IMG/VR virus record: IMGVR_UViG_3300012933_000388
Span: 1-64,000 of that record
Reading direction: 5' to 3' (one strand)
Origin: a virus
Taxonomy: Duplodnaviria; Heunggongvirae; Uroviricota; Caudoviricetes
Length of the DNA: 64,000 nucleotides
The translations under genes and the position numbers were made by a program. Below, piece after piece: positions 624 through 26,211 of the stretch (position 1 is its first letter; each line of letters starts with the position of its first letter). Below the pieces are notes generated by a model, which saw only the letters and a program-made list of their open reading frames with translations, was not told the DNA's origin and did not search any database.

Positions 624-1013
624 ATGAATAGCCGAATAGAAGAACTGGCTAATGATTCGTTTGCATATGCGCAGACGCGTCATAGTCAGCATTCACCTGA
701 ACTAATTCGCACATTCACATCGAAGTTTGCTGAGCTTTTGATCCGCGACGTAATGGAAACACGGAACATGGGCGAGAGCGACCGCGAGCATCTTTGTTCG
801 TACTATGGTCTTGAGTATAAGCCAGTCATGATGAAGCATCCGGAGTATGGGGATCTATATCAGTTGGATGAATGGGACGAGGCAGTAAACGCTGGTTATT
901 TCAATTCAGATGATGGCTCAGGATATTGGGCAACGAAGACAGAATATGCATACGTCTCTTGCTGGGACGAATGCCCAGAATGGGCAACTCACATATTGTG
1001 GTTCAACAAGTAA
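624..1013 (+). CDS. hypothetical protein, FAELLxxEC paralog family member
   Basis: ATG 624 preceded by AGGTGAAAAG. RIEELA...TSKFAELLIRD motif is shared with other ORFs in the window. Confidence 0.6.
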   Translation: MNSRIEELANDSFAYAQTRHSQHSPELIRTFTSKFAELLIRDVMETRNMGESDREHLCSYYGLEYKPVMMKHPEYGDLYQLDEWDEAVNAGYFNSDDGSGYWATKTEYAYVSCWDECPEWATHILWFNK

Positions 1014-1030
1014 CTATTTTCTCCCCTTTT

Positions 1031-1058
1031 GCGCCCGCTTGTCGGGCGTTCTTTTTTT
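1031..1058 (+). terminator. rho-independent terminator
   Basis: GCCCG-cttgt-CGGGC hairpin followed by gttcttttttt. Confidence 0.6.
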
Positions 1059-1068
1059 GGTGTATAAT
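1039..1068 (+). promoter_or_regulatory. sigma70-type promoter, candidate leaderless (TATAAT-N6-ATG)
   Basis: TTGTCG-N18-TATAAT (1063-1068). The ATG of the Toprim gene starts 6 nt after the -10 and no SD is present. Confidence 0.45.
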
Positions 1069-1074
1069 ACTTGT

Positions 1075-1599
1075 ATGGAAACACTAGCACAACACATGAA
1101 GACACGTCACATGGACGTCAATCTCCACCACCCAGTATTGGATGAAGTGGAACGTGTTGCTACGTTCTATCTTTGGAACCTCAGTGGGCAGTTAGTTGGC
1201 TACCAACAATACAGGCCAGAAGGCGAGAAGAAGCCAAACAACAACCCACGAGAAGGTAAGTATTACACATACAGAAAGCAGCCTACGGTTGTTGTATGGG
1301 GTGTAGAATCGCTTCACCTTACACCGCATGTTGTATTCCTGACCGAGGGTGTGTTCGACGCTGCTAGGCTGACAGAACGTGGTGTTAGTGCACTTGCAAT
1401 CCTCAGTTGTAACACAGGCTGGGACTTACGCAACTGGTTAAGCATGCTCAATCGAAAGGTTGTTGCTGTTTGTGATGGCGATAAGGCAGGCGCGCAGCTT
1501 GCCAAGTTTGGTAATGTCAGTCTTTGTATGCTTGGGGGTAAAGACCTTGGAGATGCTGATGATGCGACTGTTGATATGCTAGTGAGGGAGTTTGTGTAA
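1075..1599 (+). CDS. Toprim domain protein (primase/topoisomerase-type fold)
   Basis: Conserved Glu in FLTEGVFDA and DxD in VCDGDKAG, then GGKDLGD. The longer ORF from 910 crosses the terminator, so ATG 1075 is preferred. Confidence 0.65.
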   Translation: METLAQHMKTRHMDVNLHHPVLDEVERVATFYLWNLSGQLVGYQQYRPEGEKKPNNNPREGKYYTYRKQPTVVVWGVESLHLTPHVVFLTEGVFDAARLTERGVSALAILSCNTGWDLRNWLSMLNRKVVAVCDGDKAGAQLAKFGNVSLCMLGGKDLGDADDATVDMLVREFV

Positions 1600-2210
1600 T
1601 GCCAGCCGTGCACCTATCAGGTCAACACAACGTAACATTCGTCCACATTCCTAAGTCTGCTGGTACTAGTGTAGGCAACTGGATAGTGGATCATGCTGAC
1701 GAGAGTGCTGTAATGTTGTGGTGGAATCATCCAACACTCGCTCAGATGAGACGTACTTGCAGTACCAACTTTTCAATTGCGGTGGTGAGGAATCCATGGG
1801 ACAGACTTGTTAGCATGTATCATTATGCTCAGTTTGGCACAAGTCCTCATCCAGCTATCGACTCTGATATGATTCACGAGATGTTTATCAGAGCAAACAA
1901 CTATAAGGTTTGGCCAACGTTCGATGAGTGGGTGTCCAACCTACCTTCATTCTACACTACACCAAACCAACAGGGCATGGATATGTCGCAGATGTATTGG
2001 ATTGGGGATGGAGTCGACTTGGTGATCAAGATGGAGACCATCGAACAGCAGTTTGAGGTGGTACAGGAAATGTTTAAGTGTGGTGATCCACTACCAAAGC
2101 AGAATACAACCAACCATGGTCATTATAGCAAATACTATGATGCTCGAACGAGAGATCTAGTTGCGAGATGGTTTAAGCGTGACATCGAAGCATGGCACTA
2201 TGAGTTTTAA
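1599..2210 (+). CDS. sulfotransferase family protein
   Basis: PAPS-binding 5'-PSB-like FVHIPKSAGTS and 3'-PB-like VRNPWDRLVSMY motifs. ATG overlaps the upstream stop. Confidence 0.65.
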   Translation: MPAVHLSGQHNVTFVHIPKSAGTSVGNWIVDHADESAVMLWWNHPTLAQMRRTCSTNFSIAVVRNPWDRLVSMYHYAQFGTSPHPAIDSDMIHEMFIRANNYKVWPTFDEWVSNLPSFYTTPNQQGMDMSQMYWIGDGVDLVIKMETIEQQFEVVQEMFKCGDPLPKQNTTNHGHYSKYYDARTRDLVARWFKRDIEAWHYEF

Positions 2211-2223
2211 TTAGGAGACAGAT

Positions 2224-2661
2224 ATGACAAGTATGATTTTAGTTCGTGGATTGCCAGGCTCTGGTAAGTCTACTGTTGCGAAGACTTTGATTGGTTTCTA
2301 CATGCACGTGGAAGCGGATATGTTCTGGATCAACGACTGTGGCGAATATGACTTCGATATCAAACGAATCGGAGAAGCACATTCGTGGTGTCAGAACCGA
2401 GTGTATGAGTTGATGGCTGCTGGGTTTAGTGTTGTTGTGTCTAATACATTCACAACATTGAAAGAGATGGCACCATACTTTGAAATGGCCCGCGACTTTG
2501 ATTGTGTTCCACAGATCATTGCCTGCCAAGGACAATATGGTAGCATCCATGGTGTGCCTGATGAGGCAATTACAAGAATGCGAGATCGATTTGTTTGGGA
2601 CGTGTCGCCATTGTATGATCTTGAATCAGCTTTTTGGCAAGATCGTACCTTGCAGCCTTAG
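2224..2661 (+). CDS. P-loop kinase (AAA_33 / polynucleotide-kinase-like)
   Basis: Walker A GLPGSGKST at the N-terminus, EAD Walker-B-like motif, size and layout of small nucleotide/polynucleotide kinases. RBS AGGAGA. Confidence 0.6.
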   Translation: MTSMILVRGLPGSGKSTVAKTLIGFYMHVEADMFWINDCGEYDFDIKRIGEAHSWCQNRVYELMAAGFSVVVSNTFTTLKEMAPYFEMARDFDCVPQIIACQGQYGSIHGVPDEAITRMRDRFVWDVSPLYDLESAFWQDRTLQP

Positions 2662-3277
2662 ACTTCGACCCGAGTACAACAATAATGTGCTCGGGAGTAG
2701 TCATAGCAACACACCAACCAGCTGCATTAGTGAACCCAGTCTTTGACACAGTAACATGGGTAAACTGAGTTAACAGATTATAGTTGGTATTTTGAAGGAG
2801 GGTTAGATGAGCCCTCTTTCCTTTTGGCATAACGGTTTGTACTGTAGGATGAGACGCAGCTCGTATCTCATCAAACTTCATCGCATATGCAATTAGCAGA
2901 GCAACATCCTCAGCAGTCGATATATTCATGCCGAGGCCAGATGGATCAATGAACCTAGTATTGGACATACCAAGCTGTCGAGCTCTAAAGTTCATAGCCT
3001 GGATGAATTTATCGCGACCATATGTTGCTGCGATCGCCTCAGCGGACTTATTATTGCTTTGCACTAGCATGGTGTCGATCAGGTAACGATCGTCGACTCC
3101 CAACTCCAAAGCAACAATTGCCGTCATCAGCTTAGTGATGCTAGCTAGTGGTCTTTGTTGGGATGAATCTTGTTCTACTACTACTTTGTTGTGTCGTATG
3201 TCATATACGAGAATCGATTCCTTGGCTTGCAAGGCTGTAGCGAAAAACAATGAGAAGATGATTAGAAGTCTTTTCAT
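2570..3277 (-). CDS. secreted D-alanyl-D-alanine carboxypeptidase/endopeptidase (peptidase S11, low-MW PBP)
   Basis: Signal peptide MKRLLIIFSLFFATALQA. SxxK (SITK), SxN (SNN) and KTG (SKTGFT) active-site triad. Confidence 0.8.
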   Translation of the reverse strand: MKRLLIIFSLFFATALQAKESILVYDIRHNKVVVEQDSSQQRPLASITKLMTAIVALELGVDDRYLIDTMLVQSNNKSAEAIAATYGRDKFIQAMNFRARQLGMSNTRFIDPSGLGMNISTAEDVALLIAYAMKFDEIRAASHPTVQTVMPKGKRAHLTLLQNTNYNLLTQFTHVTVSKTGFTNAAGWCVAMTTPEHIIVVLGSKSKAARYDLAKKLIQDHTMATRPKQIDLAFL

Positions 3278-3392
3278 AATTAGTGCCCCGTTTATGTCCT
3301 CCCACCTGGCGTAGTGGGATGTAGTAGGACGGGGCCACTCCTTTGTACACCTATCGTAAGTTTAACGGTCCTAAGGTAGGTGTGTTCTTTAG

Positions 3393-3755
3393 TTACCAGG
3401 CCTTGCAGGACCAGTAACGTGCTTTATCTTTTGGACCAGGGTTGTCACAATTGTGACGAGCTCTGAATGAAGAACGACGTGCAGGAATATTCTTCTTGAT
3501 CGTCATGTTCTTATCGCCGAAGTTTACTTTCTTAGCCTTGCCATCACCATCAGGATCGACGTAGACTTTAGACTTCTTAACATCGCCAGCCATTGGCTTG
3601 TTGAGAGGAACCTTCTTACCTTGGTAAGTCGCTTCATCGATTTCAGATTCTTCCTTAACGCAAGAATCTTCAGCGCATGGCTTTGTTCCAGCCTTACGCT
3701 TATACCCCTTCCAACAGGTACAATTCTCACTGATAAAGTATTTGAAAGACAACAT
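3393..3755 (-). CDS. conserved hypothetical Lys/Cys-rich protein
   Basis: RBS AAGGAA upstream of the ATG. C-terminal RRSSFRARHNCDNPGPKDKARYWSCKAW resembles a recurrent phage family I cannot name. Confidence 0.55.
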   Translation of the reverse strand: MLSFKYFISENCTCWKGYKRKAGTKPCAEDSCVKEESEIDEATYQGKKVPLNKPMAGDVKKSKVYVDPDGDGKAKKVNFGDKNMTIKKNIPARRSSFRARHNCDNPGPKDKARYWSCKAW

Positions 3756-3773
3756 CGATTATTCCTTTTTGAG

Positions 3774-3783
3774 TTTATTTATC
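3774..3783 (-). promoter_or_regulatory. T4-late-promoter-like motif GATAAATAAA
   Basis: Minus-strand GATAAATA lies 20 nt upstream of ATG 3755 with an intervening SD. Compare T4 late consensus TATAAATA. Confidence 0.3.
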
Positions 3784-3784
3784 G

Positions 3785-6700
3785 TCATGCGCCACGCAAC
3801 ATACAACCGTTGAACCAAGTAATAGCTGAGTTATTAACTGCCGTAACAGTTACGTTCCCGCCCGAACCTTGCTGAACGTATATTTCAAAGTAATCACCAG
3901 TGCCGTTTGCATACACCAATGAGCTTACTTGCATTGCCCAGAAGTTGGTAGCAATTTGCGCTCCTCTCTGGTTTATGCCACGCTTGTATTCTGTACCGTT
4001 TTTGTAAAGAATAATCATTATTTCGCCAGTGCCACTGGCACCATCTAGTCGAACTTCTGCATTCAATTGATAATAGCCTTCAACCGTAGGGGTGAATCTC
4101 GAGCTAGCGTAATTATTATTGGTGTCAAACTCTTCTACTTGAAATAGGACCTTGGTCTGAACATCAGTTGGAATTGTTTGGAGTGTGTTGTTTGCATATG
4201 CGGAGAATGCAGGACCATTGACTGCTTGCTTACCACCGACGGTGATCGGGCCTGGAACATTTAGCGCGCCCGTATCAGATAAAGAAAATATTGTTGCACT
4301 ATACGCACTGTTAATAATTTCTATTCCACCAACACTATTCAATCGGAACGATTTAGTGTTTGCGGTTGCACCAGCAGTTTTATTTGTGACCTTTAAGAAG
4401 TCAGCATACCCAGTACCGCCTTGCGTATTGGAAGCATTAACAATTAATGGATAACCGGTTGGAGTTGCACCAGCATATGTCAATGTTAAAGTATTGCTGT
4501 TGACGTTGACGGCAGAGATAGCACCGACGAAGCTAATGTTGTTTGAAGTGAGTGACGCAACACCATTAGCATATGCATACTGATTGGCAGCAATGCCGCT
4601 AAGGTATAGTGCGTTGTTAGCAGTGCCGGATATGTTGTCTGGTATCACGATCCCTGACACTTGCTCAACGTTAACAATAACTGCTGGTGTACCAGGTACT
4701 GTTGGTGTTGTACCGGCTGCATATGAAACCAATTTCACATGGCCGCCTTCGGATGAGTGCATCACCTGAACTCTATCACCAGCGTTGACAGTCACCATGA
4801 ACGGAGTAACAGCAATCAAGCTTCCAGGATCCTGACCAGTGTTCTTTCTATTGACTGAAAATCTACTATTAGTGTTTGTTTGATCGGTGCCGTTGATTCG
4901 AATCCACACATTGACGTCGTCGTCGGAATTACCATTATTTTCATACTGGTTGCTATATTCAATGTGGTATGTACCGCTATGTGCAAAGACTATATCGTTG
5001 TTGCTACCGACCGTTACGCCGTTTGTTCCATCATATGATGCAGTAATAGGAACGACGTATGCGTTGGTTGTATTAGATAACGCAACGTTAGCGCCGTTAT
5101 AGTAGAACGCCCCAAAGTATCCAGTAGTGAAGTTGTTAGATGTTCCGTTCTGGTTAATCCACTGGCTAAGCGCAGTGTTGTATGTCAACACTTGATTGTT
5201 CAACGGACCAGTAATAGTAACATCAGTCAGACTATCGATCGTAGTTGGAATCGTTGGCTTATTCTTAATGAAGTCAATCGCTAATGTATTCGATTGATTC
5301 CAATCAGTTTGAATCTGAGATGCAGTGGCATTAGTCCAATATACTCCTGTACCATTGGAGGCTAACACTTGGCCAGCAGATCCTTTAGCATTGTTTGCTG
5401 TAATCGATACAAGGGTTGCGTTGTTGGTATTAATGCCTGTTGAGTCGATAGTTGCTGTAGTGATTAGTGTATTGCTACCTACAGGCGTTGTTTGGAATGT
5501 TATCTTTGTGCCTGTATTGGCAGTATAGAAGTCTTCAGCAGCGTTCAAGTTGATACGAACAATACTACCTACGTACGTGTTGCTACCTGCCGCCCACCCT
5601 TGAGCTGTCAGACGCAACAAAGTATCGCCCGACAGCGTTGGTAGCGGTGAAGCTGCTGTTCCTCGAGCAGCCCTACCAGCAACAGATGCATATGCACCAG
5701 CACCATATGCATCAAAACCAATACGTGCTGGCTGCCCATCTTGCGCAACCGCTTGGATTAACGATCCAGAGAAGTTGCGAGGTTGAATGTCTCCTGTACT
5801 GGATCCGACTATTGTTAATGCCGCCTGTGATGTTAGTAGTGTTGCTGGAGTGTTGATAGTTACCAGACCCTCACGAGTTACACCGAATGTTTGGTTGCCA
5901 GTATCATAGCTGTTTACTACAATCGGGCGGTTGATGACAAGATTGCCAGTCCCTAATGTCGCTCCAATATAAAACGTTGCTTCTGTATTAGTTAACTGTA
6001 TGTAATTGTTTTGCAATAAAAAGTTACCAACACGAAGACCGCCATTAGATTGTTGTGTTGTATTTGCAATCGCAATATAGAATATACCATTAGCAAGTGT
6101 TAACTTTTGATCTGGAAACCCTGTCGTCTGATCTGCAAATGTAACAGAATTACCACCAACCCAAATGGACTCCCAGCGGTTGGTATTATTGCCGAGCGAG
6201 TATGTTAAGCTAGTATTCGGAATGATGGATGATGGAACGTGCAACCAGTCGACTGTTGTATTAGCGCTGATTACTTGATTACTAATTGTAATAGTTGTAC
6301 CGTCAATCTTTACACCACCCTTAGTGGTAGTAGAAGCAGTAGGGAGGACATAACCACCAGGGCCCCCGCCCGTTGGATCTTGTGCGGTCCACTTCTTGAT
6401 AGATTCATTATATGTAAGCACCTGGCCGTCTGTAGCACCAAGAACAGACGAACGAGCAACATCATCCAAGTCTCTTAACCATACTGCACCACCGCCTGGC
6501 CCGGTCATGGAAATCTTACCAACCCAACCTTCCAACAATTTCAACTTCTGTTGAATGTCCTTCAAGTCTCTACCAGTAACTTCTGGAGCAGGCTGGACGA
6601 ACATCGAAGGCGGTTGACCCTTCTTCTTAATTTTCTTAGCTGCCTCTTTGGCAAGTGATGGCTCTTCAATGGGCGCAAGGATCGCTTCCTCAATCACTTC

Positions 6701-7078: not shown

Positions 7079-7082
7079 GGAT

Positions 7083-7093
7083 AATATTTATCT
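7083..7093 (-). promoter_or_regulatory. late-promoter-like motif AGATAAATATT, N6 from ATG
   Basis: Minus-strand AGATAAATATT is identical to the motif at 51912-51922. GATAAATA ends 6 nt before the tail-fibre ATG and no SD is present. Confidence 0.35.
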
Positions 7094-7094
7094 G

Positions 7095-7123
7095 TTGCCA
7101 ATTCCGATTGGTCACTATACAAT
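7095..7123 (+). promoter_or_regulatory. sigma70-type promoter
   Basis: TTGCCA-N17-TACAAT, 30 nt upstream of ATG 7154 with AGAGG SD. Confidence 0.5.
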
Positions 7124-7153
7124 AGACGCCAACACACTTTCAAGAGGTATACA

Positions 7154-7695: not shown

Positions 7696-7703
7696 GGAAA
7701 AAT

Positions 7704-8495
7704 ATGAAACGCTTATTTGTAATGTTGATGGTAATTGGTGGCGCATTGCTCACTGGTTGTACCCGTATCGAGACTGGTACTGTTGGTTTGCGTGTCGATA
7801 TGTCACGACAGATCCAAGGTAATGAATTACAACCTGGTACATGGAACCAGACGTTGATCGGTAGTGTGCTTGAATTCCAAGTGCGATCGATTCCTACAGG
7901 TTGGGAAAACTTGACTCCACAAACCGCTGATAACTCTACACTGAAAGACTTTGACGTCAATATTGTGTATGAAGTTAATCCAGCATCTGTCTCTGAATTG
8001 TGGACTACACAATCACGAAGCTTCCACACATATGAGCATGGCGATTATATGCTGATGCGTAACTATATGTCTCAGGTATTGAGCTCTGCTGCAGCTAAAG
8101 CTGTTCGTAAGTACAAGGCATTGGAAGTTGCTGACAATCGTGAGAACATCGAAAAAGCAATCCACGACATCATGGTCAATATGTTGACTGAAGAAAAGCT
8201 CGAGAAAGCTCTTACTATTAGCCAGGTTCGTGTCACTAGTGCCACTCCTGCCGATGACATTGTAGCATCTGCTAACAACGCTGTCCGTGCTCAGAACGAT
8301 CTGAAGACCAAGCAAGTCGAAGTACAGATTGCTCAACAAGAAGCTATCCGTATCCAAACTTTGAACAGCAACTCACAAGCTATTCCATACATGAATGCAA
8401 TGGCTCAAATGGAAATTGCTAAAGCTATCCGTGAAGGTAAGGTCCACACAATTGTTGTACCTCTAGACTTCAAGGGTATTGTAAACGTCAAGTAA
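7704..8495 (+). CDS. SPFH/band-7 domain lipoprotein
   Basis: Lipobox MKRLFVMLMVIGGALLTGC. GTVGLRVD...PGTWNQ...TADNSTLKDFDVNIVYEV is the SPFH pattern. The ORF-track start 7581 was rejected because it overlaps the small ORF. Confidence 0.7.
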   Translation: MKRLFVMLMVIGGALLTGCTRIETGTVGLRVDMSRQIQGNELQPGTWNQTLIGSVLEFQVRSIPTGWENLTPQTADNSTLKDFDVNIVYEVNPASVSELWTTQSRSFHTYEHGDYMLMRNYMSQVLSSAAAKAVRKYKALEVADNRENIEKAIHDIMVNMLTEEKLEKALTISQVRVTSATPADDIVASANNAVRAQNDLKTKQVEVQIAQQEAIRIQTLNSNSQAIPYMNAMAQMEIAKAIREGKVHTIVVPLDFKGIVNVK

Positions 8496-8505
8496 GGAGT
8501 ATATT

Positions 8506-8676: not shown

Positions 8677-8677
8677 T

Positions 8678-9057: not shown

Positions 9058-9066
9058 GAATATATT

Positions 9067-13261: not shown

Positions 13262-13708
13262 ATGTCTAAGAAAGAAGTTGCAGTAGCAGCAAATGACCAA
13301 CTGACTCCACTCCAACAACAATTGTTGGATCGTGCAGATTCCATTATGAGTTCGATTGCAACAACAGTCGATAAGGCTAGTACATTTGCTGCGGAACAAG
13401 TACCAGATATCGCATTGCAGTATGTTGCATTTGGACGAGCGAGTATTTCAGCATATGTGGCAATCAGCGTAATTGTATTTTGTATTGCATTCTGGTTGTG
13501 TATTCGAGTTGGTATTATGAACTCACGCGGATATCCAGCTGATGGATATTCGTGGGATGATCGACGCATCGGAGCTACTCTATTCGGTGGCGGTATGGGT
13601 GTTATATCAATCATTGCGTTCTTCATTAACTTGAACAACTTTATCATGGTATGGGTTGCTCCTAAGATTTGGTTGATCAACGAAATTGCACGATTGGTCA
13701 AGCGATGA
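13262..13708 (+). CDS. membrane protein
   Basis: RBS AGGA. Two or three TM helices in the C-terminal half. Confidence 0.6.
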   Translation: MSKKEVAVAANDQLTPLQQQLLDRADSIMSSIATTVDKASTFAAEQVPDIALQYVAFGRASISAYVAISVIVFCIAFWLCIRVGIMNSRGYPADGYSWDDRRIGATLFGGGMGVISIIAFFINLNNFIMVWVAPKIWLINEIARLVKR

Positions 13709-14070
13709 ACGTAATCATTGCAGGTGGCAGAGATGTCACCGATTTTGACTTAGTTGAACGAGCAGTCAACAACTCTGGTTTCGAAATCGAGCAAGTAGTC
13801 TCGGGCGGAGCTAAGGGTGTTGATACGCTTGCTGTACTATACGCTCAGAAGTATAATAAACACTTAGCGTTGTTTATGGCCGACTGGGACCGACATGGAC
13901 GTAAGGCAGGACCAATTCGTAATGGGCAGATGGCAGAGTATGCTGATGCTTTGATTGCGGTGTGGGACGGTAAGTCAAAAGGTACTAAGAATATGATCGA
14001 CCAAGCAACAGCTAAAGGTTTGAAAGTATACATTGAGCGAACAGATCAACCAACTGCATTGGATATTTAA
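13705..14070 (+). CDS. SLOG-fold protein (DUF2493 / YpsA-DprA-LOG-like)
   Basis: MNVIIAGGRD...VVSGGAKGVD...GPIRNGQM...SKGTKNM pattern of DUF2493. ATGA overlap selects 13705 over the ORF-track start. Confidence 0.6.
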   Translation: MNVIIAGGRDVTDFDLVERAVNNSGFEIEQVVSGGAKGVDTLAVLYAQKYNKHLALFMADWDRHGRKAGPIRNGQMAEYADALIAVWDGKSKGTKNMIDQATAKGLKVYIERTDQPTALDI

Positions 14071-15062: not shown

Positions 15063-15399
15063 TTTCCTTACAGACATCCGTGAGACTTGGAGCATATCTT
15101 ACAAGGCTGCTGTTGAGCGTCGTAAGGAACGCGAGCGTGCCGCTGAGCGCAAGCGATTGGCTGCCGTGTTCAACGACATCTACACATACCGTTATCGCTA
15201 CGATAAGTCGAGCAGCGAACGATTGCCTGGTACCGGAATGTTTGGGTTTGCGGCAGAGACTGGTTATGCTTGGATGTGTCCCAAGTGCAATAAAATACAT
15301 TTAGCTAGTGGCTGTACTGGTATGACTGGTGTACAATATCCAGCATGCTGTGACCATCGTGAAGGTCATAGACTATACGACAACATAAGGACAAGATGA
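15055..15399 (+). CDS. hypothetical protein with CPKC...CC zinc-ribbon-like motif
   Basis: Internal ATG 15055 of the 14872 ORF fits the array. The upstream part overlaps the previous gene. Confidence 0.5.
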   Translation: MIDFLTDIRETWSISYKAAVERRKERERAAERKRLAAVFNDIYTYRYRYDKSSSERLPGTGMFGFAAETGYAWMCPKCNKIHLASGCTGMTGVQYPACCDHREGHRLYDNIRTR

Positions 15400-15659
15400 A
15401 TAAAGAACTAATCGATAAGATCGCTTTCCAACACAACCTCCCATATAGCGAGGCACTTGTTGAGTACACTCGCTCTATCATCCAAGAGTGCGTTGGTCGT
15501 TGCGATGTGGTTGCTGAGGAAGCTCATGCCGCTAAGACTAGCGACTTTACTACAGACATGGGCAAGCAATTGTTCTCTGGTATGTGGGGTGGTGCTATGG
15601 GTTGCGGTAATGCCATTATGATGCACTTTGACATTGAAGTGCCAGAAGAAAGAATGTAA
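15396..15659 (+). CDS. hypothetical protein, distant FAELLxxEC-family member
   Basis: YTRSIIQECVGRC resembles the family core. ATGA overlap. Confidence 0.55.
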   Translation: MNKELIDKIAFQHNLPYSEALVEYTRSIIQECVGRCDVVAEEAHAAKTSDFTTDMGKQLFSGMWGGAMGCGNAIMMHFDIEVPEERM

Positions 15660-16660: not shown

Positions 16661-17023
16661 ATGATTCAAGAAGTGATCGAGCGTGCTAATGCATCATTCT
16701 GCAAGAAGTACGGTATGGAAGGAACATACCATAACGACTTCACCCCATTCTTTGCAGAGCACTTGCTCGACCAGGTATGTAAAGATATTTCAGGATGTGC
16801 CGATCCTGCTAGTGCTATAGCATATGTCCGGATGAAGTATCACGTTGGTATGTTCAAGCGTGGCGATCGAGTACGTGCAAGTGAGAATGCTGGGTTCCAT
16901 CGTGGAGCCACCGGTGTGGTTGAATTTGTAGAGCCATCATACAAACGTGTATGGGTATTGCGCGATCATTCAACTTCACCAGTATACTACGCACCAGTAG
17001 AGTTGGAGTATGAAAATGTTTGA
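16661..17023 (+). CDS. hypothetical protein
   Basis: ATG 16661 lies 4 nt after the upstream stop. ATG 16649 is an alternative start. Confidence 0.5.
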   Translation: MIQEVIERANASFCKKYGMEGTYHNDFTPFFAEHLLDQVCKDISGCADPASAIAYVRMKYHVGMFKRGDRVRASENAGFHRGATGVVEFVEPSYKRVWVLRDHSTSPVYYAPVELEYENV

Positions 17024-17870: not shown

Positions 17871-17873
17871 CTT

Positions 17874-18535: not shown

Positions 18536-18554
18536 ACAAACAAAAGAGTATATT

Positions 18555-19633: not shown

Positions 19634-19875
19634 AAAAGATTTTAATTGTATTGGGTGTTGTTATGTTGGCTGCTTGCTCGCCGAGCGCCAAGCAGAAGTA
19701 CTACCCTGTCCTTCCAGACGAATTGAAAGACTGTAAGTTCTATCGATTAGAAGATGGTGCTGGTGTTGCTATTACTGTTGCACGTTGTGGTAACGCTACG
19801 GCTGTTCGCCAAAGTGATAAGGCAGGAAACACTACGATCTTGATTGATGGTGTTGAATATGAGCGAAAGAACTAA
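19630..19875 (+). CDS. lipoprotein
   Basis: Lipobox MKKILIVLGVVMLAAC. ATGA overlap. Confidence 0.6.
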   Translation: MKKILIVLGVVMLAACSPSAKQKYYPVLPDELKDCKFYRLEDGAGVAITVARCGNATAVRQSDKAGNTTILIDGVEYERKN

Positions 19876-19877
19876 AC

Positions 19878-20060
19878 ATGATTAATGATGAACCAAGTGT
19901 GAAAGACATGGCACGGCTGTGGGCATTGTGTGCAAAGTTTATTGAAGAGCAAGACATTCACTGTGCTGAAACGATATACCAAACAGATCGTATTGCAGAG
20001 AATGCATTACAGTTGATTGAAGATATCTGCGAGGAAGTTGGGTATAATAATGACGACTGA
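19878..20060 (+). CDS. hypothetical acidic protein
   Basis: Packed array. Confidence 0.45.
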   Translation: MINDEPSVKDMARLWALCAKFIEEQDIHCAETIYQTDRIAENALQLIEDICEEVGYNNDD

Positions 20061-20604
20061 TCGAGTTTCAAAACTGAGTAAGCAAGCGATGGAGTATGCT
20101 GCAGAGCAGTATGGTCCTCAACGTGCTGGCGAGATGGTGTGGGATCCTCTAACATACGATCGTAAGTTCGCTGAGCTGATCGCAGCGGATTGTATTGCGA
20201 TGATTCAATTGCACATGCCACGCAATGGTGTTAGCTCGCCAGAGAATGTAATATCCAAACGCCATATCAACAACATCGCTGACCTATATGGTGTCGCATT
20301 ACCGCTACCTGCATCAGCGTATGAGGATCAGATTGCTAACATCATGGCTGGAGCTGATGCGATGGCAGGCGATGGTGGTTATAGTGAAGCTAGTCTGAAG
20401 ACTCCCCAATTTCTAGAGACTCAAGCGAGATATGAGGCTTTGTACAGCAAGACGCAAATAACAGCCGAAGCTGTACAACATCTGCGTGAAATGACAGATT
20501 GCCCGATGATGGAATGTAAGAAAGCATTAACAGCATGTAATGGCAACATGGATGAAGCGATGGAGTATTTACGCAAAGGCCGTCAATTCCGGACATACAT
20601 CTAA
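20050..20604 (+). CDS. FAELLxxEC-family protein fused to an EF-Ts N-terminal (TS-N/UBA-like) domain
   Basis: C-terminal ITAEAVQHLREMTDCPMMECKKALTACNGNMDEAMEYLRKG aligns with E. coli EF-Ts [42 protein letters not shown]. N-terminal part carries RKFAELIAADC. Confidence 0.7.
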   Translation: MTTDRVSKLSKQAMEYAAEQYGPQRAGEMVWDPLTYDRKFAELIAADCIAMIQLHMPRNGVSSPENVISKRHINNIADLYGVALPLPASAYEDQIANIMAGADAMAGDGGYSEASLKTPQFLETQARYEALYSKTQITAEAVQHLREMTDCPMMECKKALTACNGNMDEAMEYLRKGRQFRTYI

Positions 20605-20619
20605 CCAAAAGGAAAACAA

Positions 20620-21042
20620 ATGAGTGATCAATCTACAAGATATGATGCATTCGAGAAGCGGATGCATGAAGAGTATCCAAAGATGTTCTCACAACCATAT
20701 GGTGGTTTTGCTATTGGTGAAGGTTGGTGGCCAATTGTCGAGATTCTATGCTCACATATTCAACAGCACATCGATTGGATCAACTTCAACATCGACAAGT
20801 ATCCTGAACGAGGCGTAGAGCCAGTTGAGCAAGTAGTTGTTGCACAGATCAAAGAGAAGTTCGGCAGCCTTCGATTCTATTATGATGGCGGGGACGCTTA
20901 TGTTCGTGGATTAGTTGAAATGGCTGAGTCATGGGCTGGTCGTAGTTGTGAGATATGCGGTGAGCGTGGAACACGTGGTGATAATAATGGATGGGTTAGT
21001 ACTTTATGCCCAACACACAGAGCAGAACGGAATGAAGCATGA
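20620..21042 (+). CDS. hypothetical protein with C-terminal CxxC...C zinc-ribbon-like motif
   Basis: RBS AAGGAAAA. GSLRFYYDGG...CEICGERG. Confidence 0.6.
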   Translation: MSDQSTRYDAFEKRMHEEYPKMFSQPYGGFAIGEGWWPIVEILCSHIQQHIDWINFNIDKYPERGVEPVEQVVVAQIKEKFGSLRFYYDGGDAYVRGLVEMAESWAGRSCEICGERGTRGDNNGWVSTLCPTHRAERNEA

Positions 21043-21302
21043 GTGAATTAAGTGATTTGAAAGCATTATTGTTAGAAGCTCCGAGTGATCAATTAGATCA
21101 TTCGATGTTTCCATTGATTGAGGCGTGGGATGCAGAGCCAAAGGCTATCCAGATCCTGGAAGTACTTGATAAGTGTATCTACTATGCGTTGGCTAGTGGG
21201 TTCGCTATCAAGGCGTTGCAGGTTATGTTGGATTATGCACTGACGAATGAAGGCACGACACTCGACCAGGTAGTACAACTAGCGACGTGGCGGACAACGT
21301 AA
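21039..21302 (+). CDS. hypothetical protein
   Basis: ATGA overlap. Confidence 0.5.
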   Translation: MSELSDLKALLLEAPSDQLDHSMFPLIEAWDAEPKAIQILEVLDKCIYYALASGFAIKALQVMLDYALTNEGTTLDQVVQLATWRTT

Positions 21303-21445
21303 TGTACTTCGGTAGTAGTGATATTAGTTGGATTTTTTCCAAATCAACGTGGACAGTTATTGCAATTGCATGTATACTAGCGTTATGGAAGATCGTAGAT
21401 GTTTTCATCTGGATCTTCTCACACATTAGTATATCGTGGAGTTAA
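21302..21445 (+). CDS. small membrane protein (47 aa)
   Basis: TAATG junction. TM WTVIAIACILALWKIVDVFIWIF. Confidence 0.35.
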   Translation: MYFGSSDISWIFSKSTWTVIAIACILALWKIVDVFIWIFSHISISWS

Positions 21446-21448
21446 ACA

Positions 21449-21658
21449 ATGGAACAAGCCAAGCCATGTCCCTTCTGTGGGAGTAGTAAGCTGACATATC
21501 GTTATGAAGGTCAGCCTGCATTGCGCTATGCAATCATGTGTGGTGAATGTGGTGGAACGACTCGTTCTGTCTATGTGGGCGGAACACCGTCCGGTTCTAC
21601 TGTGTTGTTTAATAATCCAGAAGCAACTGAACTATGGAATAAGAGAGCACAGCAATGA
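21449..21658 (+). CDS. Lar-family restriction-alleviation-like protein
   Basis: CPFCG...CGECG zinc ribbon followed by ATELWNKRA, the Lar_restr_allev pattern. Confidence 0.55.
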   Translation: MEQAKPCPFCGSSKLTYRYEGQPALRYAIMCGECGGTTRSVYVGGTPSGSTVLFNNPEATELWNKRAQQ

Positions 21659-21942
21659 ATATCTACAAGGCACGCTATCGCAATGCTCTGAAGAAGGCTG
21701 CGAAGATCAATCGCTATATGAAGAAGGGTTATCATGTATTCTTTGATAGTAACCCCAATCACCTCGGGTTTGTTATAAAGGACAACCAGCTATTGCTACG
21801 TGCCGATCAAAACTGTTCTTATATCTTCTATGAAAATGATAAGGACTGGGATCATGGGTATTGGACTCCAATCAAGCAATGGAATGCTGAGTTCAACGAA
21901 CGATTCGAAGTATACAAACCAGAAGCAAAGGTTGTATTATGA
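21655..21942 (+). CDS. hypothetical protein
   Basis: ATGA overlap. Confidence 0.55.
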   Translation: MNIYKARYRNALKKAAKINRYMKKGYHVFFDSNPNHLGFVIKDNQLLLRADQNCSYIFYENDKDWDHGYWTPIKQWNAEFNERFEVYKPEAKVVL

Positions 21943-22169
21943 ACGAACGAATCCAAGAACTTGATAAGCAGGCTAAACTCTGGGCGATGGATAATACTAA
22001 TTTTCCAATATCGTCACATATTCCTGCAGGTTATACAGAAAAGTTCGCCGAGTTGCTCATAGAGGAATGCATTGGGCAGTGTTGGACGGTGTCTGAATTG
22101 GAATCGAACGGGTATGTTGTCAGCGAGTGTTCGAAGAAGATTAGAAAACATTTCGGAATTGAGCAATGA
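21939..22169 (+). CDS. FAELLxxEC paralog family protein
   Basis: MNERIQELDKQAK...EKFAELLIEECIGQC...IRKHFGIEQ. Confidence 0.6.
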   Translation: MNERIQELDKQAKLWAMDNTNFPISSHIPAGYTEKFAELLIEECIGQCWTVSELESNGYVVSECSKKIRKHFGIEQ

Positions 22170-22411
22170 TAACGAATGAAGATATCCACATTTTAGCTGA
22201 ACAGGCTAAAGTATATGCTAACCAGTTCGAGGAGCATTGGAATGATGGCCCCGATACTGATAAGATATTCAACCAAAAGTTCGCTGAGTTGATAGTTTGG
22301 GAAACATTTGCTGCGCTGTGGACAGATGAATGCATGCAGAGCGATTTGGCATTGGAACAGTTTAACCGTAACGTGAACAACATTAAAAAACATTTCGGGA
22401 TGAAGGAATGA
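22166..22411 (+). CDS. FAELLxxEC paralog family protein
   Basis: LAEQAKVYA...QKFAELIVWE...IKKHFGMKE. Confidence 0.6.
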   Translation: MITNEDIHILAEQAKVYANQFEEHWNDGPDTDKIFNQKFAELIVWETFAALWTDECMQSDLALEQFNRNVNNIKKHFGMKE

Positions 22412-22611
22412 GCAAAACATATTTCCTCACAAACAATGACGGCGACATCATGTGTTGCTGGGACGGTGATCCGGCACGTACGAACATTATTGAGTTTAAA
22501 AGTGAGCGGCCATATACGCCAGAAGAGGTTGCACGACTGATGAACAAAGCATTCAAAATTGGTATGGATGCTAAGGCTCAGGACATAAAGAATGTGTTGG
22601 GGATTCGATGA
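22408..22611 (+). CDS. hypothetical protein
   Basis: ATGA overlap. Confidence 0.5.
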   Translation: MSKTYFLTNNDGDIMCCWDGDPARTNIIEFKSERPYTPEEVARLMNKAFKIGMDAKAQDIKNVLGIR

Positions 22612-22811
22612 GCGACGACACAACCAAGCCAGCTGTCCGTGTATATGGATGGGTGTGGAAGGATAAGCTAGCAGATGATGGATCTTGCTATGTTCCATCA
22701 TACACACCAGCACAACACGTTCCAAGAGGCGAGTTGTTTGCTCTAGTAGATCCTGCTGATTTACATGAGCCACTTAAAAACACGAAATGGCATTACAGGG
22801 AAAGTGAATAA
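22608..22811 (+). CDS. hypothetical protein
   Basis: ATGA overlap. Confidence 0.5.
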   Translation: MSDDTTKPAVRVYGWVWKDKLADDGSCYVPSYTPAQHVPRGELFALVDPADLHEPLKNTKWHYRESE

Positions 22812-22993
22812 TGGATTATAATGAAGCATATGTCCGCCTAGAGATGGGCGCAATCGATGATGTCGATGCTGCTGTATTCAGTGGCGATATCTTCCATGAT
22901 GAAGAGAATCGTAAGCGATTCCGCAAGATGCTCGAACGTTGGACAAAAGAGATGGATGCACTTGATGCGTCTGGATTTGGATTGAACCCATGA
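22811..22993 (+). CDS. hypothetical protein
   Basis: TAATG junction. Confidence 0.45.
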   Translation: MDYNEAYVRLEMGAIDDVDAAVFSGDIFHDEENRKRFRKMLERWTKEMDALDASGFGLNP

Positions 22994-23217
22994 CACAAAC
23001 AATTTACGGATTAACATGCGACTATGGTGATGGCAGTGCCGGCATGCGTTGGTATCGCAACAAAGCAATCGTCGATGCTAAACTAGATGAAGATGGTCCA
23101 GACTGGGATGAGATGATGTATGGTAATGAAGGTGTGCCTAGCATGGTGCTGACGTTCCCAGCCGACTTAGATCTCGAGAAGTGTGGATTCTACTTCGACG
23201 ATGAGGACGATCTATGA
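22990..23217 (+). CDS. hypothetical acidic protein
   Basis: ATGA overlap. Confidence 0.5.
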   Translation: MTQTIYGLTCDYGDGSAGMRWYRNKAIVDAKLDEDGPDWDEMMYGNEGVPSMVLTFPADLDLEKCGFYFDDEDDL

Positions 23218-23417
23218 GTAAAGGTCTAGAAATCCCATATGAGGTTGCCGATGGCATTACATTAGCATCGATGATTGATCAGCATGGGTACTTGAAAGAA
23301 GAGACAAGAGCGCATTTGGAAGATGGTGCATACCTTCATCCGGACGATTTGGGCAATAACATCAGGTTGATTGCTGCATTGGAGTTGTTGATTGCATATT
23401 ATGGTGGTGAAGTATGA
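23214..23417 (+). CDS. hypothetical protein
   Basis: ATGA overlap. Confidence 0.5.
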   Translation: MSKGLEIPYEVADGITLASMIDQHGYLKEETRAHLEDGAYLHPDDLGNNIRLIAALELLIAYYGGEV

Positions 23418-23767
23418 GTTTAGATGTTGATTTGCTGGTAACTAAGCCATCGTCTGTCTTCAGTTACAACATTACGCATAATCTAGGCGCAATGGCTAAG
23501 GCCGTTGTCCTCGATCCTCATACGGATATTCCGTTGACATTGTATCATGTGTTGTGGCGACCAGAAGAATATGATCTTACTTTAGCACATGAGATTGCCG
23601 ATTACTTGAACGTTGGTTTGGGTATCCTAATGGCAGACCCAGAGAAGTATAAGGCACTCAATCCGCCAAATGGGTGGGGTGATTATAACGGGCTGTGTCA
23701 ATTTGTCCGCGAGTATCGCGATGCATGTTGGGACAATCCATTTGCTGAGCTGAGTGTGTCGCGATGA
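23414..23767 (+). CDS. hypothetical protein
   Basis: ATGA overlap. Confidence 0.55.
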   Translation: MSLDVDLLVTKPSSVFSYNITHNLGAMAKAVVLDPHTDIPLTLYHVLWRPEEYDLTLAHEIADYLNVGLGILMADPEKYKALNPPNGWGDYNGLCQFVREYRDACWDNPFAELSVSR

Positions 23768-24096
23768 GACTAATGCTTGGGCGCGCGGGTAGACCAGATC
23801 TTCTTGTTGATGTTAAGCAAGAGATCGCTCCCGACCACTTCGATTTCCGCGTTGTCAATGGACAATGGGATGGCACATACTACAAGGGGTATGTGACTAC
23901 CCATGATGCTCCGAGTGGTGATTATTCTAGTTTGGATAAGGTAGAGATACTGACAGACAACCAAGACCGGTTGCGTAGTGTCCCTTGGTATGAATATCAG
24001 GAAGTGTTTAATAACTTCGACAATCCAGCATATGTCGCACCCAAACCAGCGCCAGTTGTCTATCCGGCCAGCTGGGATGATGATATCCCATTCTAA
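23764..24096 (+). CDS. hypothetical protein
   Basis: ATGA overlap. Confidence 0.55.
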   Translation: MRLMLGRAGRPDLLVDVKQEIAPDHFDFRVVNGQWDGTYYKGYVTTHDAPSGDYSSLDKVEILTDNQDRLRSVPWYEYQEVFNNFDNPAYVAPKPAPVVYPASWDDDIPF

Positions 24097-24105
24097 GGAT
24101 TCAGA

Positions 24106-24372
24106 ATGAACGGAAAAATCTTTGTCATAGCTGGTACCTATGATCAATTCAATATATTTCGCAGAACACTTGCAGGTACGATGATTGAGGAAAATATCGA
24201 TGTTCGTCTAAACGACATTGTGTACGTTCACAGCGACAACTTGTATGGGTATGAAGACATCTGGGGATACAAAGTCGGGACTTGGCAACAACGAAAAGAC
24301 ATTGATGTTATTTGCATGATGTTGCTCGCCTGCCGAAGCTCAATTGATAATTTTATTGAGGTTGAATTATGA
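24106..24372 (+). CDS. hypothetical protein
   Basis: RBS AAGGA. Confidence 0.5.
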   Translation: MNGKIFVIAGTYDQFNIFRRTLAGTMIEENIDVRLNDIVYVHSDNLYGYEDIWGYKVGTWQQRKDIDVICMMLLACRSSIDNFIEVEL

Positions 24373-25097
24373 AACAACTATACTCACACGAAGTACCAAG
24401 ATGGATGAGAATGCTTGGCGTGACTCGAGTACATAAAGAGTCAATCGATTTCAAATGGGGATACTTTGCTCCTCGTCCATCATTTCAGCTACTATTACAT
24501 CGTGGTGGATACTTTGATTCGCGATATGCTATCAGTATTGCACTAGGCTATGGTGTGTTCCACTTCTACCTTCCGTTCAAAACCAAGCTGAAAGAAGGTT
24601 GTGATTTACCACAGTATGGTATTCATATTCATGGTGATACGTTTTGGATAATGATCGGTGGCGATTATGATGAATCAATTGGTCAGGTTCAGGGTAAGAC
24701 GTGGATTACATGGGACCTACCATTCTTCAGCTATGAGTTCGATGGCCATTGGGTCAAAGACAAACAGCAGCGTTGGGCGCTGATGAAGAACTTTGAATCA
24801 TACGAATTCAAAAAGGATCAAGCATACAAAGAGCAACATCCGTTTACCTATGTTCTCAAAAACGGTACAATACAGGAAAGAACTGCGACTTGTACTATTG
24901 AGAAGCGTAAGTGGCATCGTAAGTGGTTTCCATGGCTGACCCGGGTCAGTGAAGTGATTGATGTTGAGTTCTCTGATGAGGTCGGCGAACGGTCGGGAAG
25001 CTGGAAGGGTGGAACGATTGGGTGTAGCTATGAGCTCGAGCCAGGTGATACGATTGAGAGTTGCCTAAGACGAATGGAAAAGGAAAGAAACTTTTAA
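24369..25097 (+). CDS. hypothetical protein (242 aa)
   Basis: ATGA overlap. Trp/Lys-rich with no motif I recognise. Confidence 0.6.
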   Translation: MKQLYSHEVPRWMRMLGVTRVHKESIDFKWGYFAPRPSFQLLLHRGGYFDSRYAISIALGYGVFHFYLPFKTKLKEGCDLPQYGIHIHGDTFWIMIGGDYDESIGQVQGKTWITWDLPFFSYEFDGHWVKDKQQRWALMKNFESYEFKKDQAYKEQHPFTYVLKNGTIQERTATCTIEKRKWHRKWFPWLTRVSEVIDVEFSDEVGERSGSWKGGTIGCSYELEPGDTIESCLRRMEKERNF

Positions 25098-25098
25098 T

Positions 25099-25299
25099 AT
25101 GGATGAAAAACTAATTGAGCGATTGAAGAAACTTGCTAGTAGTGAATGCTTCTATGATGATGAGGACGAAGATAAGATCATTGACGATTATGCTGGTGGC
25201 AACGTTGACGATGCTTTCCAGGTAGGTGAGCATGCAGGTCAAGTATTGCTTGCTCGTGATATCCTGACGGCGTTAAAAGTTCAATGGTGGACGGAATGA
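25099..25299 (+). CDS. hypothetical acidic protein
   Basis: TAATATG junction. Confidence 0.5.
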   Translation: MDEKLIERLKKLASSECFYDDEDEDKIIDDYAGGNVDDAFQVGEHAGQVLLARDILTALKVQWWTE

Positions 25300-25547
25300 A
25301 TGATCGAATCGAAAAACTTGCTAAAGAGCATAGGTTAATTCATATTCACATGAGCACAGGCGAATATAACGATACATTGAAGAAGTTCGAAAAGCTCGCC
25401 GAGCTGATTATCCTAGAGTGTGCTAAGGTATGTGCGGATAATGGAATGCGTGCAGGTGGTGGGAATACCATAGTTGGTGAAACTTTCTTGGATGCATCGA
25501 AGCTGATCAGAGGCAATTTCGGATTAGACACATTTGGGATGTACTGA
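25296..25547 (+). CDS. FAELLxxEC paralog family protein
   Basis: MNDRIEKLAKE...FEKLAELIILECAKVC...NFGL. ATGA overlap chosen over ORF-track 25284. Confidence 0.6.
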   Translation: MNDRIEKLAKEHRLIHIHMSTGEYNDTLKKFEKLAELIILECAKVCADNGMRAGGGNTIVGETFLDASKLIRGNFGLDTFGMY

Positions 25548-25786
25548 TGAACGATCGCACCAAGCAACTTGCTGAGCAGGCTGATCTATATGCTCGGTCT
25601 GATAATTCCAGCATGCTATTCGAAAACTGGAAAAAACAATACACCGAAAGGTTGACTGAGTTGATTGTTCGGGAATGTGCTGATAAAATCGAGCATGATT
25701 ACAAATATGAACGCGGCGAAGATACAAAGTGGATCACAGCATTTGCTATTGCTAGTGATTTGAAGGCACATTTCGGGGTTCAATGA
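25547..25786 (+). CDS. FAELLxxEC paralog family protein
   Basis: MNDRTKQLAEQADLYA...RLTELIVRECADKI...KAHFGVQ. Confidence 0.6.
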   Translation: MNDRTKQLAEQADLYARSDNSSMLFENWKKQYTERLTELIVRECADKIEHDYKYERGEDTKWITAFAIASDLKAHFGVQ

Positions 25787-26010
25787 TGTGGAACGATGAA
25801 GAATTAACCCAAGAAGAACAAAATGCACAATATCTGCAAGACAATCCGCATGTTGAATCTGGGTTGTGGGCAGAGTGGGTAGGGGTTGTATGTGGGTGGG
25901 ATAAGATTCCAACACCTACATCAGAAGAATGGACTAAGTTAAAAGCAAACTTCTATCATGGCAAGGCGCCGATAGAATCGGTTGCTGAATTAAAAAAGAT
26001 GCGGGGTTGA
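25783..26010 (+). CDS. hypothetical protein
   Basis: ATGA overlap. Confidence 0.5.
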   Translation: MMWNDEELTQEEQNAQYLQDNPHVESGLWAEWVGVVCGWDKIPTPTSEEWTKLKANFYHGKAPIESVAELKKMRG

Positions 26011-26013
26011 ATA

Positions 26014-26211
26014 ATGAAGTATAATGTAAAGAAGTTCCATGCTATCCTAGCAAAGGCACATTTGGAGATTGGTCCAAATGCAGATACAACGGCTTTGGCG
26101 GATAAGTTTGCTGAGTTGCTTGTGAGAGAATGTATCGATGTGTTATCGGAAGACGATGGGGCTACTCATCACGAGCAGTTGTTGCTCAATCATTTTGGAG
26201 TGAAACAATGA
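26014..26211 (+). CDS. FAELLxxEC paralog family protein
   Basis: LADKFAELLVRECIDVL...LLNHFGVKQ. Confidence 0.6.
   Translation: MKYNVKKFHAILAKAHLEIGPNADTTALADKFAELLVRECIDVLSEDDGATHHEQLLLNHFGVKQ

Follow-up and report, generated by a model that had tools for sequence, protein, structure and literature searches.

The repeated small genes considered here lie in a 64,000-nucleotide (nt) stretch of viral DNA (Caudoviricetes; IMG/VR record IMGVR_UViG_3300012933_000388), which is called the window throughout. Sequence comparison identifies them as real members of one very large, unnamed protein family. A typical gene alternates three short conserved blocks with two variable segments, and these two segments assort independently of one another. 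The observations as a whole are best explained by a family of shuffled cassettes built on a predicted three-helix scaffold and acting as a portfolio of binding modules, an explanation to which we assign a probability of roughly 0.5. As far as the searched libraries and the literature show, this cassette architecture appears to be undescribed.

A preliminary description of the window had grouped nine open reading frames (ORFs), each named here by its first nucleotide (Table 1), into one family with an N-terminal helix, an FAELL core, and an HFG end. All nine ORFs and their quoted motifs are present where they had been placed, and a family defined by these three elements is significant when judged with an independent profile. 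Membership stood for seven of the nine, which are solid homologs (E <= 6e-11), whereas 15396 and 16661 can be considered only probable divergent members. The arrangement of 21939/22166 and 25296/25547 as tandem pairs was also borne out (Table 1).

The window search space consisted of 568 six-frame ORFs, each of at least 35 amino acids (aa). Within it, phmmer linked 21939, 22166, 25296, 25547, and 26014 pairwise at E 1e-6 to 4e-3 (26014 to 25296 at E 7e-4) with zero false hits. A core hidden Markov model (HMM) made from these five ORFs recovered 624 (E 2e-7, N-terminal 49 residues) and 20050 (E 1.4e-6, residues 14-93), and the next hit was at E 0.25. The independent HMM was built from 252 database homologs with the window's own sequences excluded, and it matched all seven solid members: 21939 (E 1e-24), 25547 (E 8e-20), 22166 (E 1e-18), 25296 (E 2.5e-13), 20050 (E 1e-12), 624 (E 8e-12, residues 2-70 aligned), and 26014 (E 6e-11), with noise beginning at E 0.04. 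The shared motif is therefore significant as a profile comparison. An HMM made from all seven sequences returned nothing new from the 568 ORFs, and no further member emerged from any of the three HMM searches among window ORFs of at least 35 aa. In the alignments, the three blocks occur in order and at family-typical spacing, and three helices are predicted in the structural model of 21939.

ORF 15396 is probably a distant member of the family. With the independent HMM it was the first sequence after the seven solid members (E 0.04), and hhalign gave P 2.6e-4 with a probability of 42%. Three of its four orthologs carry HFGIEV where the window copy has HFDIEV. The protein may be a membrane-associated variant of the family. 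Its insert, LFSGMWGGAMGCGNAIMM, is invariant among orthologs, and the protein has a weak match to a PHROG holin (E 0.09).

ORF 16661 is likewise probably a divergent member, which as a single sequence goes undetected by the independent HMM (E 2.4). With the profile of its subfamily, hhalign gives an alignment to block B (score 19.6, P 0.0016, versus a maximum of 15.4 in 30 column shuffles). The orthologs keep (MN)xxIxEAIxRAN, FFAExLIxxVC, and RxKYxVG in this order, and for both 15396 and 16661 the blocks stand in A-B-C order in alignments of orthologs. In addition, BLASTP connects 16661 (E 5e-12) with P0068, a canonical module fused to the same C-terminal domain; the match runs from KYHVGM, equivalent to KKHFGV, through that domain. 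Residues 62-119 of 16661 match phrog_18640 (E 6e-17).

The layout of these genes can be read as block A (MNERIKELAEQA), variable segment 1, block B (KFAELIVREC, preceded by E in the consensus), variable segment 2, and block C (IKxHFGVEE followed by the stop). Sixteen positions are conserved in at least 90% of sequences: M1, N2, R4, I5, L8, A12, K35, F36, A37, E38, L39, E43, C44, H71, F72, and G73. Some database proteins are composites of the genes found in the window. P0005 joins the N-terminal half of 624 (91% identity) to the C-terminal half of 22166 (71%), and P0010 joins the N-terminal half of 21939 (97%) to the C-terminal half of 25296 (90%). At least 20 database proteins carry a C cassette 81-94% identical to that of 21939, joined to unrelated N cassettes.

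That the two variable segments assort independently is evident from 439 proteins compared after removal of blocks A and B. Variable segment 1 was at least 70% identical in 572 pairs, and in 539 of these variable segment 2 was less than 30% identical; conversely, 431 of 449 pairs alike in variable segment 2 were unlike in variable segment 1. The Spearman correlation between the identities of the two segments was about 0. When cassettes were sorted into types, 285 N types and 285 C types formed 428 combinations in the 439 proteins. The largest N type occurs in 23 proteins with 22 C types, and that of 25547 is seen in 20 proteins, each with a different C type. The commonest C type, which is that of 22166, occurs in 31 proteins with 29 different N types.

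DNA comparisons locate the boundaries of exchange. Among 300 genes there were 122 pairwise matches (at least 80% identity over at least 60 nt), only one of them full length. Thirty-seven matches cover only the 5' half of the gene; their ends have a median position of +29 nt in the 30-nt block B, and 92% of them fall from 10 nt before to 40 nt after the start of this block. Another 46 cover only the 3' half and begin at a median of -2 nt relative to block B. The 120-nt flanks upstream of the start codon and downstream of the stop codon are no more alike than those of random pairs. Because of these match ends and unlike flanks, the unit exchanged can be defined as a half-gene of about 100-140 nt that extends from block B to either end of the gene. 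A gene on a 374-kb contig (L001, 10001-10234) is a case in point: its nucleotides 84-228 are 87% identical to 25547, and the matching stretch starts some 10 nt before block B and extends over the C cassette. The discrete cassette types recombine freely, at block B and at the gene ends, so that each phage carries a nonredundant portfolio out of a shared pool.

The family reaches far beyond this one phage, and its carriers are uncultured phages only, for the most part from lakes. A search with the seven-sequence alignment, in which 8,000 candidates were scored, yielded at least 5,331 clusters at 90% identity (E <= 1e-3), and an exhaustive HMMER scan found 3,738 matching representatives at 50% identity. 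A pattern scan of IMG/VR gave at least 346 confirmed family loci, and family-bearing contigs range from 4 kb to 374 kb. The proteins have a median length of 78 aa and are acidic (median pI 4.94). The module had no match in Pfam-A, PHROGs v4, or NCBIfam 20 when the window ORFs and 114 relatives were searched, and none among PDB sequences. The family was also undetected in 50,697 GenBank phages, where megablast of 20.0-26.5 kb gave no match and tblastn, run with both a typical member and a consensus-like query, gave a best E of 2. Across 185,579 bacterial and archaeal species (one genome each), it occurs at only 20 loci, all on contigs of metagenome-assembled genomes (MAGs) that are most likely mis-binned phage DNA; several of their isolate names suggest lake samples, and the environmental labels seen were lake and spring sample names only. 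The best structural matches in BFVD are proteins of "uncultured Caudovirales phage". One family protein is identical to a protein on a 105-kb JGI contig, and the protein of 21939 has no exact match on record in the contig index.

Multiple copies, as first described for the window, are the rule at the loci examined. In 77 nonredundant loci, each of at most 20 kb, there are 302 members (mean 3.9, maximum 13), and 66 of these unrelated loci hold two or more. All members in the 77 loci lie on the same strand, 62 of 225 consecutive member pairs abut directly, and 82% of the genes end in a stop codon overlapped by an ATG (as ATGA or TGATG/TAATG). The further proposal that the window genes arose by a lineage-specific expansion does not agree with the data. 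The thousands of clusters and the many unrelated multicopy loci speak against it, and each window paralog has an N- or C-terminal half that is closer to other phages than to anything in its own genome. Sharing of cassette types is no commoner between paralogs at the same locus than between random pairs (1 case observed, 0.8 expected). On similar grounds, we reject gene conversion or tandem duplication as a recent event in the window, given that the window paralogs share zero cassette types and differ at many synonymous sites in block B with the amino acids kept. Because same-locus paralogs lack an excess of shared types and differ synonymously, the arrays are not recent local duplications.

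Selection was examined on close cassette relatives from other loci, because the window paralogs, which have 26-36% amino acid identity, are saturated at synonymous sites. The cassettes are under purifying selection: pooled Nei-Gojobori ratios of nonsynonymous to synonymous divergence (dN/dS), from pairs that are not independent, were 0.11 for variable segment 1, 0.14 for variable segment 2, and 0.10 for block B. These low values argue against diversification by point mutation; diversity arises through the reassortment of discrete cassette types. The arms-race function suggested earlier for such a binding scaffold may be considered a reasonable guess.

In the AlphaFold2 model of 21939 (114 sequences; mean pLDDT 82.5, pTM 0.71), helices span residues 3-19, 32-52, and 60-71, and both inter-helix segments are modeled at lower confidence. 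Blocks A, B, and C map to predicted helices 1, 2, and 3, respectively, with the variation in two segments around the loops, so that the earlier picture, in which a conserved scaffold bears variable parts, describes the anatomy fairly. The predicted fold has no informative structural neighbor. Judging from the helix positions, the blocks would form the core of a three-helix bundle, and the variable segments would cover the C-terminal parts of helices 1 and 2 along with both loops. Such a constant scaffold would present two independent, exchangeable interaction surfaces, or would carry an extra small binding domain, as with the N-terminal domain of EF-Ts. Our best guess is that members are nonenzymatic cytoplasmic binding modules for host or phage proteins that participate in takeover or anti-defense.

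The module occurs either alone or N-terminal to small domains. These include an EF-Ts N-domain (20050, P0254), an SH3-like domain (16661, P0068, P0069), a zinc ribbon (P0174 and the gene at 3399-3836 of contig L007), the phrog_14149 domain (624, P0021), and a second module (P0115, P0148). The C-terminal residues 71-129 of 624 match phrog_14149 at E 8e-18, and its ortholog P0021 differs by one residue. For the two-module protein P0115, the AlphaFold2 model has a mean pLDDT of 67.7; all alignment rows fall on the second module, and the first is poorly modeled.

The fusion to EF-Ts holds up as first described, with residues 136-176 of 20050 matching EF-Ts residues 2-44 in PDB 1efu_B (E 5e-7). The same region matches positions 3-43 of the 293 in TIGR00116 (E 1.5e-10, 40.7 bits against a cut-off of 104) and the Pfam UBA model (E 6e-4), with UBA and EF-Ts_N both below their gathering scores. 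Only these TIGR00116 positions are matched, and the EF-Ts core and dimerization domains are not in 20050. Because they are absent, the protein cannot be a nucleotide-exchange factor; unlike in EF-Ts itself, the domain is appended C-terminally to a family module, in the part of 20050 encoded by nt 20335-20604. At least one further protein from a phage contig (P0254) keeps it without the exchange-factor core, and three proteins with the same cassettes as 20050 lack it (P0009, P0032, P0164). In the EF-Tu/EF-Ts complex (1EFU), the N-terminal domain of EF-Ts contacts the G domain of EF-Tu. The appended domain may tether the phage protein to EF-Tu.

It is necessary to ask whether the mosaic could be produced by something other than exchange between functional genes. 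All homologs come from short-read metagenome assemblies, and paralogs share exact runs in the blocks (medians of 15, 14, and 17 nt between genes for A, B, and C), so a mosaic created by chimeric assembly at these blocks, like chance similarity of the motifs, deserves consideration. We judge both to be most improbable. Independent profile E-values down to 1e-24 are difficult to reconcile with chance. Assembly chimeras are unlikely because independent samples and sources repeatedly yield the same N-C pairings and arrays, and because block B with 60 nt on each side would fit within one 150-nt read. P0003 and P0013 were each found in both JGI and Logan, P0043 is present on 26 contigs, and four pairs of different contigs carry the same arrays (L027/L030, L002/L003, L032/L034, and L043/L045). 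Moreover, the exact runs would be shorter than the k-mers usual for assemblers. A different concern is that the arrays are selfish or neutral, with the blocks serving as nucleic acid elements (coupling signals and recombination handles) and the peptides being of little function. The blocks are indeed conserved at synonymous sites, with third-position identities of 0.70 (A), 0.67 (B), and 0.84 (C), and synonymous divergence (dS) is lowered to 0.24 in the first 36 nt from about 0.5 elsewhere. Block C, whose consensus is CAT TTC GGA GTT GAA GAA TGA, places GGAG 7 nt before the overlapping ATG and thus appears to carry the Shine-Dalgarno sequence and start codon of the next gene. Because of this placement, part of the GVEE conservation would reflect the ribosome-binding site of the following gene, and in tandem members blocks C and A make up one continuous conserved junction. 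The prevalence of stop-overlapping ATG codons and the movement of cassettes independently of their flanks can be cited for the same view. Nevertheless, dN/dS values near 0.1 in both variable segments and in block B, together with a fold that is predicted with confidence, are not what peptides of little function should exhibit. The dS of block B equals that of the variable parts, and hence there is no extra nucleotide constraint on this block among close relatives, and window paralogs vary synonymously in block B yet keep its amino acids. We consider selfish or neutral arrays unlikely.

Two other explanations accept functional peptides but assign them a different role. The first supposes one common conserved target, such as the translation machinery, another shared hub, or a metal or ligand, with the polar residues forming the active surface and the variable segments tuning or decorating it. 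Conservation of N2, R4, K35, E38, E43, C44, and H71 in at least 90% of sequences across many contigs fits a common partner or ligand better than it fits a structural core. A Cys occupies the conserved position in 453 of 481 sequences, a CxxxC motif is present in 27%, and in 16% it is joined by C-x(4-9)-HFG, which could make up a Cys3His site. One subfamily carries a fusion to the EF-Ts N-domain, which binds EF-Tu, and the same phage encodes a tmRNA. A single target, however, leaves 4 to 13 different copies per genome unexplained and fails to account for purifying selection on each cassette type with no duplication of types within a locus. Also, the Cys is absent from 624 and 22166, and the His from 624, 20050, and 25296. 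On balance, a common target is rather doubtful, though it deserves more weight than the neutral arrays considered above. The other explanation holds that the genes encode precursors resembling those of ribosomally synthesized and post-translationally modified peptides (RiPPs), with conserved recognition parts, hypervariable and often Cys-rich cores, and a shared maturase, as with prochlorosins. Multicopy arrays with conserved ends and hypervariable Cys-containing segments have this general appearance, and a radical SAM gene (Table 1) lies <10 kb from the arrays in L001 and L002, with homologs near about 7 of the 77 loci. However, no such enzyme is present in the window or in roughly 90% of the loci, and a maturase is thus not consistently beside the arrays. 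The conserved blocks alternate with the variable parts and do not make up a leader, the predicted fold is compact and three-helical, and no protease or exporter was found among the examined genes beside arrays. A RiPP-like role is accordingly very unlikely.

Several further observations weigh against a portfolio of binding modules, in addition to the polar residues and the short-read origin of all homologs mentioned above. Positive selection was not detected in the pooled dN/dS values, and the pairs behind these values lack independence. The sequence sets are biased toward relatives of the window's paralogs. A homolog of the CBASS inhibitor Acb3 lies between the two family sub-clusters of the window, a setting that, together with the RNA ligase, the P-loop kinase-like AAA_33 protein, and the SLOG protein of the same block, speaks for the portfolio, but it was rejected as a consistent neighbor since it was not found near the family in other loci. 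A sigma-70 scan of 14-28 kb showed no enrichment of promoters or terminators, and because promoter-like sites are fewer than in shuffled sequences, the scan cannot support the notion that the genes occupy an "early region". With these points in mind, we retain the binding-module portfolio as the best explanation as a whole. A more elaborate version of it would have the blocks kept as recombination handles, synonymous sites included, such that lytic lake phages reassort two specificity cassettes and thereby maintain a population-level repertoire of small host-protein binders, probably for anti-defense. This version is tentative, and we would place it well below an even chance.

The closest analogs of the family among known systems are evolutionary rather than homologous. 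In gp38 of T-even phages, conserved glycine-rich motifs (GRMs) alternate with hypervariable segments, and recombination takes place at the conserved motifs (Trojet et al. 2011, PMC3157838). Like the window genes, gp38 is a small protein of T4-like phages with short conserved motifs between hypervariable segments. The differences are substantial, however, because gp38 is a single-copy virion adhesin at the tail-fiber tip with a known receptor-binding role, whereas the window family is helical, acidic, and multicopy, is encoded in nonstructural regions, and has no relation to gp38 in sequence or fold. Its blocks are not glycine-rich, so the resemblance to the alternation in gp38 is only an analogy. 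A second parallel is provided by promoter early stem-loop (PeSL) elements, which are reported to be short conserved sequences that serve as recombination points for moving small accessory ORFs among T4-type genomes, specifically in their hyperplastic regions (Arbiol et al. 2010, PMC2839356; Comeau et al. 2014, PMC4122927). Both systems would thus use short conserved handles for the recombination of small accessory ORFs. PeSL cassettes consist of an intergenic promoter and stem-loop and mobilize entire genes, whereas the handles of this family are coding blocks inside the gene and at its ends, and half-genes are exchanged. An intergenic early promoter with a stem-loop does not fit between tandem members, which overlap by 1-4 nt and leave no intergenic space. 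Relative to gp38 and PeSLs together, the family is distinguished by being multicopy and helical, by its sub-genic unit of exchange, and by its spread over very different phage types.

Prochlorosin precursors, the C-terminal swapping of polymorphic toxins, and antigenic-variation cassettes also use conserved segments to flank exchangeable hypervariable ones, with many variants per genome or population. In contrast to these systems, the arrays have no associated maturase, toxin/immunity pair, or silent-cassette locus, and exchange occurs between phages rather than being programmed within one genome.

The window itself is a fragment of a T4-like myovirus, as indicated by homologs of gp5, gp6, gp7, gp8, and gp32. 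Its baseplate genes begin near 51.9 kb, and the family genes sit in nonstructural blocks among accessory genes (Table 1). No neighbor recurs consistently across the loci examined. Genes beside arrays in other loci are nonstructural and include those for RNA ligase, the phrog_850 "RNA-binding protein", NAMPT, a helicase, a CobS-like ATPase, ribonucleotide reductase, ClpP, and a radical SAM protein, the last being rejected as a consistent neighbor because it lies <10 kb from arrays in only about 9% of loci. According to published reports, Acb3 inhibits CD-NTases via direct binding, and anti-defense genes co-localize in hotspots (bioRxiv 10.1101/2025.07.23.666291, 10.1101/2025.06.06.658234).

Table 1. 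Family members, neighboring genes, and other features, with positions in the window unless a contig is named
Feature	Position	Strand	Description
624	624-1013	+	Module aa 1-68: block A MNSRIEELAND, block B KFAELLIRD, block C YYGLE; C-terminal domain aa 71-129
15396	15396-15659	+	Probable distant member; MNKELIDKIA, IIQECVGRC, MHFDIEV; glycine-rich hydrophobic insert
16661	16661-17023	+	Probable divergent member; module aa 1-62 (FFAEHLLDQVC, KYHVGM), then SH3-like C-terminal domain
20050	20050-20604	+	Module aa 1-94, linker, EF-Ts N-terminal (UBA-like) domain aa 136-176 (nt 20455-20577)
21939	21939-22169	+	Canonical 76-aa member; stop overlaps ATG of next member by 4 nt (ATGA)
22166	22166-22411	+	Canonical 81-aa member; tandem with 21939
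25296	25296-25547	+	83-aa member; KLAELIILEC, NFGLD; ATG overlaps stop of upstream ORF (ATGA)
25547	25547-25786	+	79-aa member; tandem with 25296, 1-nt overlap
26014	26014-26211	+	65-aa member; divergent block A MKYNVKKF
RNA ligase	23-622		PF09414, E 1e-29
Sulfotransferase	1599-2210		Accessory gene, same block
P-loop kinase-like AAA_33 protein	2224-2661		Accessory gene, same block
SPFH/Band 7 protein	7701-8495		Accessory gene, same block
YspA/SLOG-family protein	13669-14070		Accessory gene, same block
Acb3 CBASS-inhibitor homolog	24369-25097	+	242 aa; Pfam PF25187, E 1e-55, 189.6 bits against a cut-off of 27
C-poor region	28520-29720	+	1.2 kb; three small genes
Two-piece (permuted) tmRNA	42974-43397	+	Betaproteobacterial type; Rfam RF01850 140 bits, RF04321 147 bits
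Radical SAM protein	L001 13648-14946; L002 6116-7381		About 420-430 aa; weak SPASM domain match in L001; homologs in L025, L038, L046, L056, L067; absent from the window

Other features of the window were encountered during this work. The RNA ligase and the P-loop kinase-like protein resemble, and may constitute, a tRNA-repair pair. ARAGORN gives the tag peptide of the tmRNA as VTANESSYALAA, and the two-piece type of this RNA hints at a betaproteobacterial host and at phage investment in translation rescue. The three small plus-strand genes at 28520-29720 are nearly free of cytosine (the ORF at 28579-28917 has 3 C in 339 nt), and the region has a GC content of 0.24-0.28 with a GC skew of up to +0.85. 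A promoter-like element, AAAAAGTTGTACAAAATTGAAATTTGTATTATAAT, precedes two of these genes (at 28952 and 29275), a variant (28529/28549) precedes the first, and terminators composed of a hairpin plus a T run follow the second and third. This region could be an immediate-early, C-depleted expression cassette.

With regard to the evolution of the family, the N- and C-terminal halves of these 78-residue proteins show almost complete linkage equilibrium, which signifies sub-genic recombination on a scale of about 100 nt. The family therefore illustrates modular evolution cleanly in a natural setting, and it may be a means of generating diversity in binding. Its thousands of clusters, invisible to Pfam, PHROGs, NCBIfam, PDB, and the GenBank phages, represent a sizeable portion of viral dark matter in the sampled metagenomes, and a family profile would allow several genes to be named in each genome of many uncultured phages. 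Should the proteins indeed constitute a repertoire of binders, its logic would be like that of antigenic-variation cassettes or gp38 segments, but sub-genic, multicopy, and distributed from T4-like phages to 370-kb jumbo contigs. If the members are host-protein binders or anti-defense factors, then the catalog of cassettes would be a ready-made library of small three-helix binders, as well as a marker with which phage-host arms races could be followed in time-series metagenomes.

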